Notes under the pieces: generated by a model
The model's database searches: none
What the model saw: the letters and a program-made list of their open reading frames with translations, nothing else
Told to the model about the DNA's origin: nothing
Made by a program: the position numbers and the translations under genes
DNA from: a virus
Taxonomy: Duplodnaviria; Heunggongvirae; Uroviricota; Caudoviricetes
Virus record (IMG/VR): IMGVR_UViG_3300032334_002267
Span: 73,310-137,309 of that record
Strand: one strand, 5' to 3'
Length of the DNA stretch: 64,000 bases
Shown: piece after piece, positions 943-63,645 of the stretch
How positions within the stretch are numbered: the stretch's first letter is position 1
Layout of the letters: each line of letters starts with the position of its first letter

Positions 943-1575
943 ATGAAAAGAATATCAAAATTTACTGATTTCAGCTTAAATAATTTAGCTACCTCTGACG
1001 TAGAGATCGATTACACTTTGGACGAGTCTGAAGGTAAAGGTCTAAGTTCATTCGAACAAATCTGCTTAGAAGAAGGTATAGAATTTCAGGAAGATCAAAA
1101 TCTAAACGAGGAATACTTTGAAGGATCTTTAGATGAAATAGATCGTTTGGACGAGGGTAAATTTAAAGAATTTCTTAAAAAAGTTGGTAACAAAGCTTTA
1201 GGGTTTGCTAAAAACAATTTCGGAACCATAGTTAAAACATTAGGTCTAAGTCTAGCTGGTCCTCTTGGACCTATAGCAGGATTGCTAACTCAAGGTATAG
1301 GTGGAATTCTAAGTAAAATTAAACTTAAACCAGGAGAGGGAATTGATAAGACTCAGCTTTCTTCTGCGGTTTCAGAAAACCCAGATCTTCAAAAAGTAGG
1401 AAACGTTTGGACTAAGACGTTACAAAAACTTCTAGACGATTCTAAGAAGAATCCTGCAACTTTCATGACGGGAGACGCTTCAACTTCCATTAAGAATTTG
1501 GCTGCAATTGCTACCGCAGCAAACCAAACAATTAAATCAGTTTCTAAAGAAGCTAAGTCTACTTCAAAAGCTTAA
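943..1575 (+). CDS. hypothetical protein; N-terminal MKRISKFTDF family motif
   Basis: 210-aa ORF followed by a hairpin terminator. Confidence 0.5.
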   Translation: MKRISKFTDFSLNNLATSDVEIDYTLDESEGKGLSSFEQICLEEGIEFQEDQNLNEEYFEGSLDEIDRLDEGKFKEFLKKVGNKALGFAKNNFGTIVKTLGLSLAGPLGPIAGLLTQGIGGILSKIKLKPGEGIDKTQLSSAVSENPDLQKVGNVWTKTLQKLLDDSKKNPATFMTGDASTSIKNLAAIATAANQTIKSVSKEAKSTSKA

Positions 1576-1602
1576 TCTACAGAAATATCCATAATTTAAA
1601 AT

Positions 1603-1627
1603 TCCAGCTAATTGCTGGAATTTTTTT
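1603..1627. terminator. bidirectional rho-independent terminator between convergent genes
   Basis: TTCCAGC-TAAT-GCTGGAA stem followed by T7; A-run on the other side. Confidence 0.6.
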
Positions 1628-2159
1628 ATGTCCTTAGCTTCCCTGAGATTTTTTTCTTAACATCATATATGTGCCATTTTGAGGTGCCCTCTGAAATCCC
1701 CAAGGAGTCACCAATCTCTTTATGTGTATATCCGTCGAGGAAAAGGTTAAAAGCTTTTCTTTGGACCTCACTCACCTTTTCAAGGGATTTATGGAGCATG
1801 TTCAAAACATCTTTAGATTCAGGAACTTGTGATTCATCAGGTGCATCATACGTCTCAGGGATAGAAACAATGTTGATTTTTTCTCTTCTTTTTATTTTGC
1901 TTCTTAGATGATCATAAGCAGTTCTTTTTGCTATAACTGATATCCATCCATCAAATCGGCCTTTACCGCTGTAGAGATCTATTTTTATAAAGGCTTTAGT
2001 AAATGCTATGTTTACTATCTCTTCCCTGTCCTCTTTTGATTCAATATATTTTCTCAAGTAGGCCATGATCTTGGGCTTGAGAGTTTCGTAAACCTCTCTC
2101 TGGGATTTAGGATCTTTAATCATGCACCCCAATATTAGCTCCTGTGATATTTCTTTCAT
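1626..2159 (-). CDS. ECF-type sigma-70 family RNA polymerase sigma factor
   Basis: Region-2-like FTKAF..DGWISVIAKRTAYDHLR and region-4 HTH GYTHKEIGDSLGISEGTSKWHIYDVKKKI. Confidence 0.75.
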   Translation of the reverse strand: MKEISQELILGCMIKDPKSQREVYETLKPKIMAYLRKYIESKEDREEIVNIAFTKAFIKIDLYSGKGRFDGWISVIAKRTAYDHLRSKIKRREKINIVSIPETYDAPDESQVPESKDVLNMLHKSLEKVSEVQRKAFNLFLDGYTHKEIGDSLGISEGTSKWHIYDVKKKISGKLRT

Positions 2160-2295
2160 ATAAATCTAAAAAGAAACAAATATAAAGCAGAATCCCGGAA
2201 TAGCATCGAAAATCTGGGAATTTTTTAGTGGGTATATAATAAAATAGATGAAGATCGGAATTAATTTGGTTAGCATTTATAGCACTTAATAAGAC

Positions 2296-2994
2296 ATGAC
2301 TAATATAAGGGTAGCAGGAATGATGAGATTAGCTGAAGTAGATCAGCTAAAATTGGGTAAGGAATTAATGAAGCTGTCAATTTCACTCTTAGCAGAAAAA
2401 GTATCTGCAATCTATTTTTTACAAATAGGTGAGGTTGATAGTGACGTGATAGATCATATAATATCTTTAAAAATACCATCAAAAATAACCAGGTCAACTG
2501 AGGATTACCTTAGCGGGTGGATGTTCAGAAACAACGAATCTCTTGACGCTCTCTATAAGACAATAGATGAGGATTTTGATTGGGTTTTATATCCCGATGC
2601 AGACGATCTGTTGCCTGAAAATATCTTAGAGATACTCGGAGAAGCAGACTCGTCCGGGGCTGATACCGTTAGGATGTATTTTATAGAATGCTTTGGGTCC
2701 ATAGATAAAGTAATAGAAATTAAGACAGGATATCCGATAGGTCCTCACTTTAAGGCAGTCAAACTTAGGAAAGATATAGGTTTTATCGGGTCCGATGGAT
2801 TTAATGAGGCAAGATGCGATGCAGGCTTAGTTAGATTCGAAACTAATTACTGCATGAGACATTTAAGATATGCAAATCCTAGTGGTATAGAGGAAAGAAA
2901 AAGGATGAACTATTTCCAAGAATACTTCTTGGAAGATCACAATTTGTTAGATTATATCCCAGGAAAGGAATTTAATTATTATAGGAGAGACTAA
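2296..2994 (+). CDS. hypothetical protein
   Basis: 232-aa ORF upstream of a glycosyltransferase-like gene. Confidence 0.45.
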   Translation: MTNIRVAGMMRLAEVDQLKLGKELMKLSISLLAEKVSAIYFLQIGEVDSDVIDHIISLKIPSKITRSTEDYLSGWMFRNNESLDALYKTIDEDFDWVLYPDADDLLPENILEILGEADSSGADTVRMYFIECFGSIDKVIEIKTGYPIGPHFKAVKLRKDIGFIGSDGFNEARCDAGLVRFETNYCMRHLRYANPSGIEERKRMNYFQEYFLEDHNLLDYIPGKEFNYYRRD

Positions 2995-2999
2995 AATAT

Positions 3000-61992: not shown

Positions 61993-62403
61993 ATGAAGAT
62001 AGATAAGGCATACATAAAGCACATGAGCACACCATCACATAAAGACAAAGTGGCATTAAAGGCAAACCTACTGCCACACGCACATCACATAGGAGCACCA
62101 CAGATCAAACCCACAGATCTCACACCATTTATCAGAGCAGCCTCACACAAGGTGAACAAAGCCCTACAGAGAAGAGCCCAGGAGATCATCCTTCAGATAG
62201 AGGAGCTGCAGCAGGAGTACGAGCTCAACCAGGAGGTCTACTCGGCCAAGTGCTCCTTTGAGCCCATAGTGGGAGAGTGCTACCATCTGTACCAGAGCGA
62301 GGATGGCTCAAGGTTTATGAGTCTCATCTCACCCTCCCAGTGGAGCAAGCCACACCTGTACTCCGTGATCCTGAATGCGGACTACACCTGGAGCAAGGTC
62401 TAG
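61993..62403 (+). CDS. hypothetical protein (GC-rich island)
   Basis: 136-aa ORF; upstream CCCGCCCACC..CCAAT..ATATA boxes. Confidence 0.45.
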   Translation: MKIDKAYIKHMSTPSHKDKVALKANLLPHAHHIGAPQIKPTDLTPFIRAASHKVNKALQRRAQEIILQIEELQQEYELNQEVYSAKCSFEPIVGECYHLYQSEDGSRFMSLISPSQWSKPHLYSVILNADYTWSKV

Positions 62404-62670
62404 GCCCACCCAGGGTCCACCCTTACCCCCGTCCCCCAAACATAGTATGTTACTAAGGTAGTATGCCACAGGTTCCCCCGGCCAAGACTTAGAGGTCCCG
62501 GGGGATAGCCTCCACAGGTTCGCGTTTTAGAGGCCCTTATGGAAGCCCCTCTGTGGGCATGAGCTTCCACCCAGGGTGAAAATCCCTGATTTCTCGGATT
62601 CCCCGATTCGGGCCACCGCCTCGGTCCGGGCTTCTCCCCCAAGATCCCTCTGGGGTACCAGATCCCACGG

Positions 62671-62720
62671 TTCCCATGAAATCCCACAAATTCCCACAAA
62701 TTTCCAGAAATTCCCCCAGA
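62671..62720. repeat. tandem decamer array TCCCAnAAAT x5
   Basis: tcccatgaaa tcccacaaat tcccacaaat ttccagaaat tcccccagat; flanked by GGATTCCCCGATTCG direct repeats (about 62596 and 62726). Confidence 0.7.
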
Positions 62721-62975
62721 TACCCCGGGATTCCCGATTCGCCCCGATCTGGTCTCGGAACCGTGGGTGGCTTTCGCCCCGTTCAGAGCCTCTTAGATCC
62801 GCCAGCAGTCCCGCCTCGCCTCGCTCTACTCTCTTCTCTATGATCTCTATGCCTATGCTTCTCTTCCTCTCTAGCTATAAGAGACAGAACAGTATGGGTA
62901 TCATCTATTTGGTGGGCGGGTCCTCCTGGGAGATCCACCCCGAAACCTCCCCCTCTGGGATTCGATATATAGAGC

Positions 62976-63095
62976 ATGAAGCCCTTACCCAAGTTGTTGA
63001 TGCTTTTGACCCGCGGTGCCATTGGAGGTGTCATGGGAGTAGTCCTCTATGTGACGCTCAAGCTCATTTGCTTTTTGGTCTGGGTGTTTTTTTAA
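62976..63095 (+). CDS. putative 39-aa membrane peptide (below the ORF-table cutoff)
   Basis: MKPLPKLLMLLTRGAIGGVMGVVLYVTLKLICFLVWVFF; preceded by GATATATAGAGCATG. Confidence 0.3.
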   Translation: MKPLPKLLMLLTRGAIGGVMGVVLYVTLKLICFLVWVFF

Positions 63096-63105
63096 TCGAT
63101 AGCCT

Positions 63106-63645
63106 ATGAGACGCATTAAAACCTTTAGAGAGATCAACGAGTATCACCGTGGTCCAAAGTACCCAGAGGACTATGAGCCAACGAAGGCCCGAGGGCTCGA
63201 GGAGAATGACAAGCTCTTCACCACCCTCGGGATGAACGGGTGGATGGCACTGCTCTTTAAGAATCCCAACGCCAGGGAGCTCTGGATGCTGAATCTAGAG
63301 GACGGAGCGGTGGAAGATCTCATCACGGACTACCTCTACGGTTACGACGGTGAATATGAAGACATAGACCCTGATGCCTGCGAGGACCTGGCCACTGAAA
63401 TCTTTACGGGTCGTCACGACAAGATGGCTAAACCGGAGATGGGAGTAGGCATGGAGGACTGGGACGCCGGATGTAGCCTCATTAAGCTTGATCAGGCCTT
63501 AGGGGAGTTTATCCTAGAGGACCTAATCAGCCCTGCCTATAGGGCTAACCCCAAGATCAGCGCATCTGCGGCTAAGGCCAACAGGATGGAGAAGAAGGTC
63601 ATGGTGGATGCTATCCTCAGGGCCTTCCCCGGGATAGATGTATAG
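63106..63645 (+). CDS. hypothetical acidic protein (MRRIKTFREINE)
   Basis: 179-aa ORF, GC about 50%. Confidence 0.5.
   Translation: MRRIKTFREINEYHRGPKYPEDYEPTKARGLEENDKLFTTLGMNGWMALLFKNPNARELWMLNLEDGAVEDLITDYLYGYDGEYEDIDPDACEDLATEIFTGRHDKMAKPEMGVGMEDWDAGCSLIKLDQALGEFILEDLISPAYRANPKISASAAKANRMEKKVMVDAILRAFPGIDV

Follow-up and report, generated by a model that had tools for sequence, protein, structure and literature searches.

The first ten residues of 29 genes in a 64,000-nt stretch of an uncultured T4-like jumbo phage (IMGVR_UViG_3300032334_002267, positions 73,310-137,309; hereafter ‘the window’) follow a common pattern, M-K-x-(I/L/V)-x-x-(F/Y)-x-x-(F/Y/W). We put the probability that this common leader serves as a capsid-targeting propeptide, as in the T4 internal proteins, at roughly three in four. 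The leader looks like a longer version of the T4 capsid-targeting tag, and thus, by analogy, dozens of enzymes are probably packed into the phage head and carried into the host. A sequence-only reading had arrived at such a prohead-protease propeptide from 27 ORFs, all of which are present with starts as described, except that for minus-strand genes the number given was the low coordinate. Comparative genomics, the sole source of evidence here, supports that reading along several independent lines, with no line contradicting it; the T4 tag, too, targets via residues 4 and 7, and its cleavage follows I-x-E.

The leader sits at the extreme N-terminus, from Met1, and spans ~10-20 residues. Scored as a strict regular expression (M..[ILVM]..[FYW]..[FYWI]) at the first Met of the 101 called window genes, it was found in 24, versus 0.44 expected by chance (binomial P = 1.5e-34), an expectation that follows from the 0.43% frequency of the same spacing at internal positions. 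In the aligned leaders, position 4 is I, L, or V and position 7 is F or Y in 28/28 cases. The hydrophobic-x-Glu ending, previously noticed early in most of the ORFs, falls within residues 6-25 in 26 of the 29 leader genes versus 26 of 69 other genes (Fisher P = 1.6e-6), and three leader genes have no x-E site close by. The count rises from at least 29 in the 64 kb of the window to at least 36 genes when its flanks are included.

Two other classes of N-terminal signal were considered and rejected. A Sec, lipoprotein, or Tat signal peptide would have a hydrophobic core of ≥10 residues behind a basic N-region, which the amphipathic, acidic leader (Glu-rich; mean net charge +0.2) does not show. 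A phiKZ-like head propeptide would end in S/A/G-x-E, but P3 of the predicted leader sites is I, L, V, or F. The true signal peptides of the window, e.g., those of the genes at 23254, 53329, and 54892, are unlike the leader.

Tagged genes and their cargo

The 29 leader genes make up 20 cargo families. Nine genes are LRR paralogs, two form an SLT pair, and each of the other 18 stands alone, with no detectable similarity among these 18. The description of the cargo as unrelated was overstated, as there are 20 unrelated families and not 27. The SLT, CHAP, RNase_T (DEDDh), MoxR AAA+, LRR, and Pterin_4a domains proposed earlier were all recovered, and HExxH is carried by two proteins. No ADP-ribosyltransferase cargo was confirmed within the window; a leader-tagged ART-PolyVal gene (MRYIKLFENF) lies ~11 kb to its left. 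Two leader genes, 638-928 (+; MENIKAYDQIEE) and 33933-34364 (+; MINLLNFEKWTEINEG), had been missed and complete the total of 29. The former is a weaker member with zinc-ribbon cargo (MENIKAYDQIE↓E, the arrow here and below marking the predicted cleavage), and the latter reads MINLLNFEKWTEINE↓G, with the promoter-like motif GATATATA (discussed below) at 33921-33928.

The MoxR-type AAA+ ATPase (11362-12912, −; MGKKIYNFDDFVNE↓S, shifted by one residue; GATATATA at 12934-12941) is encoded by the first gene of a MoxR-DUF2201-DUF2201 operon found in LR756500.1, too. Peptidoglycan hydrolases are represented by an SLT lytic transglycosylase domain at residues 153-231 of the 35043-35747 product (−; MKHIKEYQEFTQEYVLNE↓G), a CHAP peptidase domain (35748-36548, −; MTKIKSFLDFRLDE↓V), and the other SLT domain (50670-51503, −; MSNIKSFSEFLNE↓GGG; AATATATA at 51521-51528). 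The RNase_T exonuclease gene occupies 41676-42500 (−; MQNIHSYKDFINE↓A), and the HExxH proteins are encoded at 41191-41676 (−; MKKVKTFSDYIE↓D; HELIH at residue 102) and 59501-60496 (−; MKHLLDFSGFLFE↓D; HEMAH at residue 160; AATATATA at 60502-60509). A looser leader (61395-61787, +; MKHIQPYHIDE↓A; GATATATA at 61383-61390) precedes a GPCWxGY...CVP motif and then a pterin-4a-carbinolamine dehydratase domain at residues 48-125. The MoxR ATPase and the pterin dehydratase are odd cargo for packaged proteins and count against the packaging reading.

LRR paralogs carry the leader at 42951-43991 (−; MKRILDFKIFE↓S), 46872-47960 (−; MPNILNYTSFSNHIKE↓SKINE↓G; GATATATA at 47965-47972), 51536-52288 (−; MKHIKTYRLFE↓S), 52492-53244 (−; MKHINSYKFFE↓S; GATATATA at 53249-53256), 55970-56878 (−; MKHVKLFE↓DFNTPTSLTE↓Q; GATATATA at 56884-56891), 56895-58196 (−; MKNLLPFSLFE↓S; GATATATA at 58202-58209), and 58213-59400 (−; MKRLLTYQLFKNRF, with no canonical x-E site; GATATATA at 59406-59413). 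The product of 44009-44509 (−; MKHILLFE↓S; GATATATA at 44517-44524) has its C-terminus in common with the LRR paralogs, and its gene heads a run of six leader genes reaching down to 41191; the gene at 46170-46856 (−; MKKILNFKELFE↓A) also belongs to a paralog family. The plus-strand leader genes further include 943-1575 (MKRISKFTDF...LDE↓S; GATATATA at 920-927), 27722-28597 (MSQLLKFKNFINE↓NEVPNE↓GG; GATATATA at 27691-27698), 28606-28992 (TTG start; MKAIKIYE↓DFED), 29003-29605 (MKFLKKYDEWIVE↓E; AATATATA at 28991-28998), 44561-45034 (starting at the second ATG of the ORF; MKYLSLFE↓T; GATATATA at 44548-44555), and 63106-63645 (MRRIKTFREINE↓Y). On the minus strand are 32835-33305 (MDNILEFQSF, with no clear cleavage motif nearby), 33355-33594 (MKNLTPFESFDSDLQE↓N), 42502-42930 (MKHIQIFE↓A), and 55621-55929 (MENLKKYENFNSNQPQSEVNE↓G; GATATATA at 55959-55966).

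Head modules, protease, and promoter motif in related phages

The leader is common in uncultured T4-like phages, with the consensus MKHIKLFEQFINE↓A/S/G. Scanning IMG/VR with a leader DNA pattern retrieved 107 distinct ORFs, whose cargo falls into 81 clusters; at positions that the pattern left unconstrained, E8 occurs in 91/107, I/V/L11 in 65, and E13 in 60, and the residue following E13 is mostly A, S, K, or G. Several of these loci adjoin T4-like head genes. In LR756500.1 (462 kb), which has the MoxR operon, sigma factor, endolysin, and ClpP-like gene of the window, about 36-46 genes start with MKYIKEYEEF(I/L)xE, and the head module consists of a portal, a fusion of Peptidase_S77 protease and scaffold, and a gp23-like capsid protein. 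No leader was seen around the head module of PTm1, the nearest cultured T4-like Bacteroidota phage examined, and no cultured member carrying the leader was found.

Among 80 related phage loci selected solely by their T4 gp21-type (Peptidase_S77) prohead protease, 37 of 718 genes have the leader at their first Met, compared with 0.17% of internal Met. A leader gene lies ≤4.5 kb downstream in 32 of 66 S77 loci and is mostly a conserved gene immediately 3' of the capsid gene. More generally, leader genes of the relatives reside within the head module, between the protease-scaffold and major capsid genes or directly after the capsid gene. This module is plainly T4-like, as seen from Portal_T4 and Gp23 Pfam matches, and its S77 protease is fused to the scaffold. 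The scaffold part of the fusions contains 2.9-4.2 [LI]xE per 100 aa versus a background of 1.3-1.5, and the capsid-protein N-termini have clustered sites, as in T4 gp22 and gp23. In a head-module protein of ~630 aa, a conserved (G/S)QTQVY is preceded by a short propeptide that varies and ends in L-x-E.

The prohead protease of family U9 (now S77) anticipated by the sequence-only reading is thus present in relatives with the same leader; the window and its ~30 kb of flanks (~94 kb read; the remainder of the genome is at least 177 kb by scaffold lengths) yielded no gene for an S77 protease, a portal, or a capsid protein. The sole protease candidate in the window is a ClpP-family gene (37010-37687, +; PHROG 94 ‘head maturation protease’, E = 5e-36), whose neighbours are SmpB and an M28 peptidase. 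Since LR756500.1 encodes a homolog of this protein besides the gp21-type protease of its head module, we do not favour the ClpP-family product as the enzyme that processes the leader.

The promoter-like motif GATATATA occurs 20 times in the window versus 3.8 expected. It lies ≤45 nt upstream of 15/29 leader genes versus 4/69 others (P = 8e-7), which ties the leader genes to GATATATA(A/G), and most leader genes without their own copy sit downstream within same-strand runs. In the loci picked by S77 protease alone, [AG]ATATATA stands ahead of every protease gene scored (79 of 79), and we therefore read the motif as the late promoter of the clade. Since leader and protease genes stand behind a common motif, the leader genes would be expressed late, together with head genes.

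Proposed mechanism and competing explanations

Packaging, cleavage, and ejection of the tagged cargo can be rationalized by analogy with T4. A late-infection promoter with the core GATATATA(A/G) would transcribe leader genes along with head genes; the first 10-13 residues would then dock the cargo, via hydrophobic or aromatic positions 4, 7, and 10, on the prohead scaffold core, which in relatives is fused to the protease. A gp21-family (Peptidase_S77) protease would cleave after the (I/L/V/F)-x-Glu ending or following the leader, and the mature cargo would remain in the filled head and enter the host with the DNA, delivering peptidoglycan hydrolases, an exonuclease, a MoxR ATPase, LRR proteins, HExxH proteins, and others. 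Scaffold binding, retention in the head, and an S77 protease encoded by the window phage itself are all inferred. The tagged proteins could also be degraded core components instead of ejected effectors.

The leader might instead be a sorting or assembly signal for another late structure (tail or baseplate, membrane site, or phage-made compartment), with cleavage incidental. Association with a late promoter would suit whatever virion part or late structure is involved, only head-module synteny in relatives, a matter of position, links the leader directly to the head, and T4’s own peptidoglycan hydrolases are known to reside in the baseplate. However, the match to the T4 tag spans the targeting positions plus the protease rule, leader genes in relatives lie between protease-scaffold and capsid genes rather than in tail modules, and no chimallin-like or compartment gene was seen; we regard this explanation as unlikely. 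Less credible still is an N-terminal degron that would time the destruction of late proteins by the ClpP-like protease and host unfoldases. That gene does adjoin SmpB and is conserved in LR756500.1, but there is no reason why late enzymes should be marked for destruction by the dozen when they are abundant, the conserved x-E with a small residue after it is a gp21-type endoproteolytic site and not a Clp feature, and head-module genes carry the leader in loci whose sequence, as far as it was read, contains no ClpP gene.

The promoter motif begins just 12-13 nt before the ATG in 11 leader genes, implying very short 5' UTRs, and Lys at position 2 is mostly encoded by AAA, as might be expected if the similarity reflected a constraint on the mRNA or on translation initiation in late transcripts that are leaderless or nearly so, with no peptide function. 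Against such a constraint, the same-codon rate at residues common to the leaders is at chance level (0.49 versus 0.47 expected), and therefore selection acts on the leader peptide, not the DNA; residue classes (I/L/V, F/Y) are conserved rather than bases, operon-internal leader genes behind other genes retain the motif, and the same peptide persists across genomes of 24% to 46% GC. We disfavour this constraint and give it slightly less weight than the degron. Finally, paralogy, recent recombination, or AT-rich chance would account for the nine LRR and two SLT paralogs, and three paralogs do have upstream DNA in common, but the notion is refuted by the 18 other cargo families, the P value of ~1e-34 against the internal frequency, and the 81 cargo clusters behind the same leader in IMG/VR.

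With the capsid-targeting propeptide as the preferred reading, a broader proposal can be advanced tentatively, at somewhat less than even odds: one conserved, portable MKHIKLFEQFINE-like tag may mark the proteins that are packaged and ejected throughout a very large uncultured T4-like clade, from ordinary-size to jumbo phages, with >35 proteins in the phage described here. If true, the injected arsenal could be read directly from sequence. It would include nine LRR proteins resembling IpaH/SspH-type effector LRR domains, a MoxR-VWA chaperone system, nucleases, an ADP-ribosyltransferase, and cell-wall hydrolases, a repertoire of secretion-system scale delivered from a capsid.

Comparison with known systems

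Encapsulin cargo-loading peptides are likewise short and portable and guide a variety of enzymes into a shell of the HK97 fold; the likeness is purely one of analogy, with no homology, and those peptides are usually C-terminal and uncleaved and serve a DNA-free shell. The cargo types overlap with polyvalent and ejected proteins such as T4 Alt, the SLT of T7 gp16, and P22 ejection proteins, and the ART-PolyVal protein has the leader. T7 delivers SLT-type hydrolases from its capsid. Unlike the separate small proteins with a common tag seen here, such activities are fused into giant polypeptides or rely on assembly determinants of their own.

In phiKZ-like giant phages (phiKZ gp175, 201phi2-1, SPN3US gp245), a gp21-related protease processes up to dozens of head and ejection proteins after Glu, and the ejected protein mass is large (PMC9026906). 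Their sites are S/A/G-x-E without a shared N-terminal targeting sequence, whereas here P3 is hydrophobic and one leader serves all cargo, and the head module of the window phage’s relatives is plainly T4-like.

The closest counterpart is the capsid-targeting sequence (CTS) of T4 IPI, IPII, and IPIII, reportedly described by Mullaney and Black in 1996 as being removed by the prohead protease gp21. T4 ipII and ipIII both begin with MKTYQEFIAE↓A, the start that the sequence-only reading had given for IPIII. The IPIII tag comprises the first 10 residues, with a targeting role for positions 4 and 7, known from mutational work, and a processing role for positions 8 and 10; gp21 cleaves after L/I-x-E (PMC9026906). 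Differences from T4 are evident. The window leader is about one helical turn longer, with a third aromatic at position 10, and its predicted cleavage is at residue 8, 11, or 13 versus 10 in T4. Tagged genes number at least 29 in 64 kb (at least 36 with flanks) versus a handful in T4, the cargo consists of SLT and CHAP hydrolases, an exonuclease, MoxR, LRR arrays, and metabolic-type enzymes, and the relatives have a protease-scaffold fusion. The putative late promoter is ATATATA(A/G) here versus TATAAATA in T4. Yet both tags are N-terminal from Met-Lys, with hydrophobic or aromatic residues at positions 4 and 7, an (I/L)-x-Glu end followed by a small residue, unrelated cargo, and late expression (here promoter-inferred), and both occur with a Peptidase_S77 protease, a T4-like portal, and a gp23-like capsid protein, here in leader-bearing relatives.

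Consensus and cargo of the leader

The leader, M-K-x-(I/L/V)-x-x-(F/Y)-x-x-(F/Y/W) in most cases followed by hydrophobic-x-Glu, opens 29 genes of the window, a gene-dense stretch of an uncultured phage with 36% GC. All 27 ORFs picked out by the sequence-only reading begin as it described, and genes 638-928 and 33933-34364 join them. The first Met of 24 of the 101 called genes matches M..[ILVM]..[FYW]..[FYWI], against 0.44 expected from internal positions with equal spacing (0.43%; P = 1.5e-34). Twenty-eight leaders align without a shift. All have I, L or V at position 4 and F or Y at position 7 (28/28 each); 24 have F, Y or W at position 10, and 18 have K at position 2. 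A hydrophobic-x-Glu ending at residues 6-25 is present in 26/29 leader genes versus 26/69 others (P = 1.6e-6). There are three registers: the Glu is residue 8 or 11 in ...LFE↓S and residue 13 in ...F(I/L)NE↓(G, A or S), where the arrow marks the predicted cut site. The residue next after the Glu is mostly small. The helical hydrophobic moment was left out as evidence because it did not clearly distinguish the leader from other N-termini.

The tagged ORFs had been called unrelated, which stands in the sense that the leader is common to 20 unrelated cargos, but not for every pair of genes. Once the first 25 residues are stripped off, nine of the 29 proteins group as LRR paralogs and two as an SLT pair, and the other 18 are singletons, which makes 20 families. 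A profile built from the LRR paralogs hits internalin-J (E = 1e-20) as well as the LRR domains of IpaH/SspH. Of the cargo domains named earlier, SLT (in two proteins), CHAP, RNase_T, MoxR AAA+, LRR and Pterin_4a were recovered, and the HExxH motif is present in two leader proteins; PHROGs and Pfam searches of the unannotated cargo returned almost no matches. At residues common to two leaders, the codon is the same in 49% of cases versus 47% expected from genome codon usage. Selection therefore acts on the leader peptide, and a DNA repeat as its source is ruled out.

Two cargo loci have further features. In 61395-61787 (+), a GPCW-x-GYK...CVP motif follows the leader and precedes the pterin dehydratase domain. 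The motif is found again in a leader-tagged protein of 570 aa on an unrelated IMG/VR contig (L113, 6153 onward), and so may represent a small module that contains Cys. The MoxR AAA+ ATPase gene forms an operon with two DUF2201 (VWA-like/metallopeptidase-like) genes at 9434-12912 (-), and this gene order is kept in the phage genome LR756500.1. The leader is on the MoxR gene in the window and, in canonical form (MKYIKSYENFIFE), on the DUF2201_N homolog in LR756500.1; in the window copy of DUF2201_N (10390-11340), ITNFDEF is displaced to residues 15-21.

Promoter-like motifs

The sequence GATATATA(A/G) stands upstream of many leader genes in the window. GATATATA itself occurs there in 20 copies versus 3.8 expected, a number reached in 0/100 shuffles, and 15/29 leader genes have [AG]ATATATA no more than 45 nt from the start, versus 4/69 others (P = 8e-7). 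Most leader genes without a copy of their own trail a same-strand leader gene with little or no gap, as in the run from 44509 down to 41191. Every head module examined in relatives (loci L026, L031, L032, L037 and L079, and LR756500.1) has ATATATA upstream of some head genes, which are the portal gene, the protease gene or that of a ~630-aa protein. Leader genes are linked in this way to a putative late promoter, the same motif being carried by head genes of relatives.

At 11 leader genes, GATATATA begins exactly 12-13 nt before the ATG (33921-33935, 44548-44563, 53244-53256, 56878-56891, 58196-58209, 59400-59413 and 61383-61397 are examples). The gap between motif and start is only 4-5 nt, and these late mRNAs would be leaderless or nearly so if GATATATA acts like a -10 element. 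In relatives, the motif-to-ATG spacing is usually 20-30 nt.

Small genes right of the window (L007 10541-20540) and in locus L164 have another upstream motif, ttacatttggg / TACATTT[GA], about 20 nt before the ATG. It is TACATTTG-like, which we take to be the host type for Bacteroidota, resembles the -7 element of Bacteroidota host promoters and is probably a mark of early promoters. The leader is absent from all of these small genes. Just upstream of the gp2/portal genes, relatives encode a 121-124-aa protein with weak Sigma70_r2 similarity (E = 4e-4 to 2e-3; L026 6868-7233, L031 6834-7199 and LR756500.1 233213-233587). Its N-terminus resembles T4 gp55, and it may be the late sigma factor that serves the ATATATA promoter. 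In the window, a full ECF-like sigma factor (1626-2159) is present instead.

Head modules of relatives and flanks of the window

The closest relatives found are contigs of ~328 kb, which have a 364-aa protein in common with the window phage at ~70% identity and are 46% GC, yet carry leader genes with the late motif. The complete genome LR756500.1 (462 kb, 24% GC) is more distant; it has in common with the window the MoxR-DUF2201 operon, a sigma factor, an endolysin, GMP reductase and a ClpP-like gene, and ~36-46 of its genes start with MKYIKEYEEF(I/L)xE. Its head module is of T4 type, with a portal (E = 3e-27 to gp20), a gp23-like capsid protein and a protein of 632 aa that matches gp21 and Pfam PF03420 Peptidase_S77 at its N-terminus. 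The family of such protease-scaffold fusions is very large (>5,000 proteins). In the phage collection, the S77 protease domain also occurs in Lak megaphages, the 630-735 kb genomes attributed to Al-Shayeb et al., in Tenacibaculum phage PTm1 and in Sphingomonas phage PAU; in Lak, PTm1 and PAU alike, the match covers only about a quarter of the query, its N-terminal protease part. In PTm1, a cultured relative, no leader was found in the 27 kb around the head module, nor did the search for cultured phages with a conserved leader-cargo family yield any.

Protease specificity in the clade may be read from its presumptive substrates. Scaffold parts of the fusions contain 2.9-4.2 [LI]xE per 100 aa versus a background of 1.3-1.5 (T4 gp22, 5.95), and the capsid proteins have sites clustered in the first 46 residues and almost none thereafter, like T4 gp23. 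The ~630-aa head-module protein begins with a variable short piece ending in L-x-E, followed by conserved (G/S)QTQVY (MSNLNE↓GQTQVY, MNNEIKESKLNE↓GQTQVY and MQKLTE↓SQTQVY), the pattern expected of a propeptide that is removed.

Leader genes co-occur with S77 head modules in relatives and sit inside them. Between the protease and capsid genes, L031 has a 133-aa leader gene (...MKHIKLFEEFVNE↓S) and L079 has two (MKHVRLYEEFITE↓S and MKYIKLFEQFVQDLNE↓S); in L149, L037 and L026, leader genes come before or after the capsid gene. In the L031 gene (12024-12425, a 294-kb relative), MKQT is repeated three times ahead of MKHIKLFEEFVNE by tandem 12-nt duplication at the start codon. Among 80 IMG/VR loci picked by S77 protease alone, without selection for the leader, the protease gene had [AG]ATATATA no more than 40 nt upstream in 79/79, and strict leaders start 37/718 genes versus 0.17% of internal Met. 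A leader gene follows within 4.5 kb downstream in 32 of the 66 loci with enough downstream sequence; it is mostly a conserved gene of 300-390 aa directly after the capsid gene, beginning M(A/K)(K/R)(L/V)K(T/S)Y(N/S)EF(V/I)NE↓. Conversely, scanning IMG/VR with the leader DNA pattern gave at least 120 loci. The matches listed comprise at least 107 distinct ORFs (each at least 60 aa) with cargo in at least 81 clusters; among these 107, positions left free by the pattern are conserved (E8 in 91, I/V/L11 in 65, N12 in 47, E13 in 60), and A, S, K or G mostly follows E13. Many of the listed matches are on contigs >100 kb, and T4-like head genes lie next to several of the loci.

The window sequence is also present in several assemblies from ENA, JGI and Logan; the longest scaffold has 131,960 bp, and the scaffolds jointly span at least 177 kb. 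No near-identical phage turned up among 50,697 phage records in a megablast with 24 kb of the window, and the MoxR protein as query found no close relatives in IMG/VR. The left flank has further leader genes, including those for proteins of 410 aa (MGIIKSFKAFINE↓S) and 483 aa (MTNRIHNFSDFSQIFE↓G), an ART-PolyVal ADP-ribosyltransferase (MRYIKLFENF) and still others. We infer that the window phage itself encodes an S77 protease, although none was found in the window, in either flank or in ~10 kb further left. Four S77 proteins with a source profile like that of the window each belonged to another phage. When the S77 protease closest in GC was used for a JGI scan, no contig from matching samples came up, and the rightward homolog, a cluster representative, is 92% identical and lies on a 4.7 kb contig.

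Some 10-19 kb left of the window (L028 11003-21002) lie genes that do not carry the leader. They include homologs of Acb3 and Tad6, both anti-defence proteins, a member of the T4_Y16D family, and the genes for AdoMet decarboxylase, thioredoxin and a signal-peptide-bearing NlpC/P60 protein. Non-leader genes of the window include a Dda-like helicase, T4-type RNA ligase 1, a second RNA ligase, GMP reductase, the ECF-like sigma factor and tRNAs. Rfam finds three tRNAs of unusual length, 93-107 nt (6187-6279, 6711-6817 and 49946-50047 (-)), which may have introns or be unusual in some other way; of the three, ARAGORN calls only the first (tRNA-Asp, anticodon 'atc'). At 37010-38874 (+), the gene for SmpB, the tmRNA partner, clusters with those for a ClpP-family protease and an M28 peptidase, and the three may form a trans-translation or proteolysis takeover module. 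A tyrosinase-domain protein (53329-54804 (-); Pfam E = 2e-29) with a lipoprotein-like signal peptide adjoins a second lipoprotein (54892-55584 (-)), which has 81% identity to a gene of an IMG/VR contig of 373 kb. An HNH/NUMOD3 homing endonuclease gene (39313-39990 (-)) is complete in some assemblies but cut short or replaced in others, with calls of 225, 189, 172 or 76 aa at this place (L001-L004), and a search for further copies returned the same context only. At the right end (56000-64000), GC climbs from ~0.36 to 0.42-0.49, and one assembly (scaffold_23) stops near position 58,650. The ~1.3 kb at 61790-63100 has no Rfam match and no convincing gene save an ORF of 136 aa and a membrane ORF of 39 aa behind GATATATA at 62964.

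Proposed capsid targeting, its alternatives and T4

We consider it about 75% probable that the leader is a T4-type capsid-targeting propeptide. It would dock late proteins onto the scaffold core, an S77 protease would remove it after (I/L/V/F)-x-E, and the cargo would be retained in the head and then ejected. That the leader instead addresses late proteins to another structure is unlikely. A degron for the ClpP-like protease (37010-37687) is less probable still: in LR756500.1, the ClpP-like gene is accompanied by an S77 protease in the head module, and it was set aside as the processing protease on the same ground. Similarly improbable is an mRNA-level constraint on near-leaderless late transcripts, which the synonymous codon data disfavor, as does the persistence of the leader over 24-46% GC; paralogy or chance is hardly credible.

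If the tag works as in T4, it offers a sequence-only rule for predicting head-loaded, injected proteins across a large group of environmental phages, a prediction that now requires virion proteomics of cultured phages. T4-like phages would then carry dozens of separately tagged effectors, so far documented in such numbers only in phiKZ-like phages, which lack a common tag. The injected activities would include unstudied ones (LRR arrays, MoxR-VWA, HExxH proteins, a pterin dehydratase fusion), and the leader would be a natural alternative tag for engineering T4-style protein packaging and delivery. No paper with the leader strings was found in the literature searched, and the broad jumbo-phage survey of Iyer et al. 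2021 does not mention the leader.

Capsid targeting as such is already known from T4. The IPIII start quoted in the sequence-only reading proved correct, ipII and ipIII both beginning MKTYQEFIAE↓A. Mutational work on the IPIII tag assigned targeting to residues 4 and 7 and processing to residues 8 and 10, with gp21 cutting after L/I-x-E; an Asp at the cut position of T4 stops processing yet leaves targeting in place (PMC9026906). The leader described here follows the same logic, but is about one helical turn longer and has a third aromatic at position 10. What appears to be new is this different, longer consensus, its spread across an uncultured clade of very large size, how many genes are tagged in each genome (29 in the window, at least 36 with the flanks, ~40 in LR756500.1) and the range of cargo.
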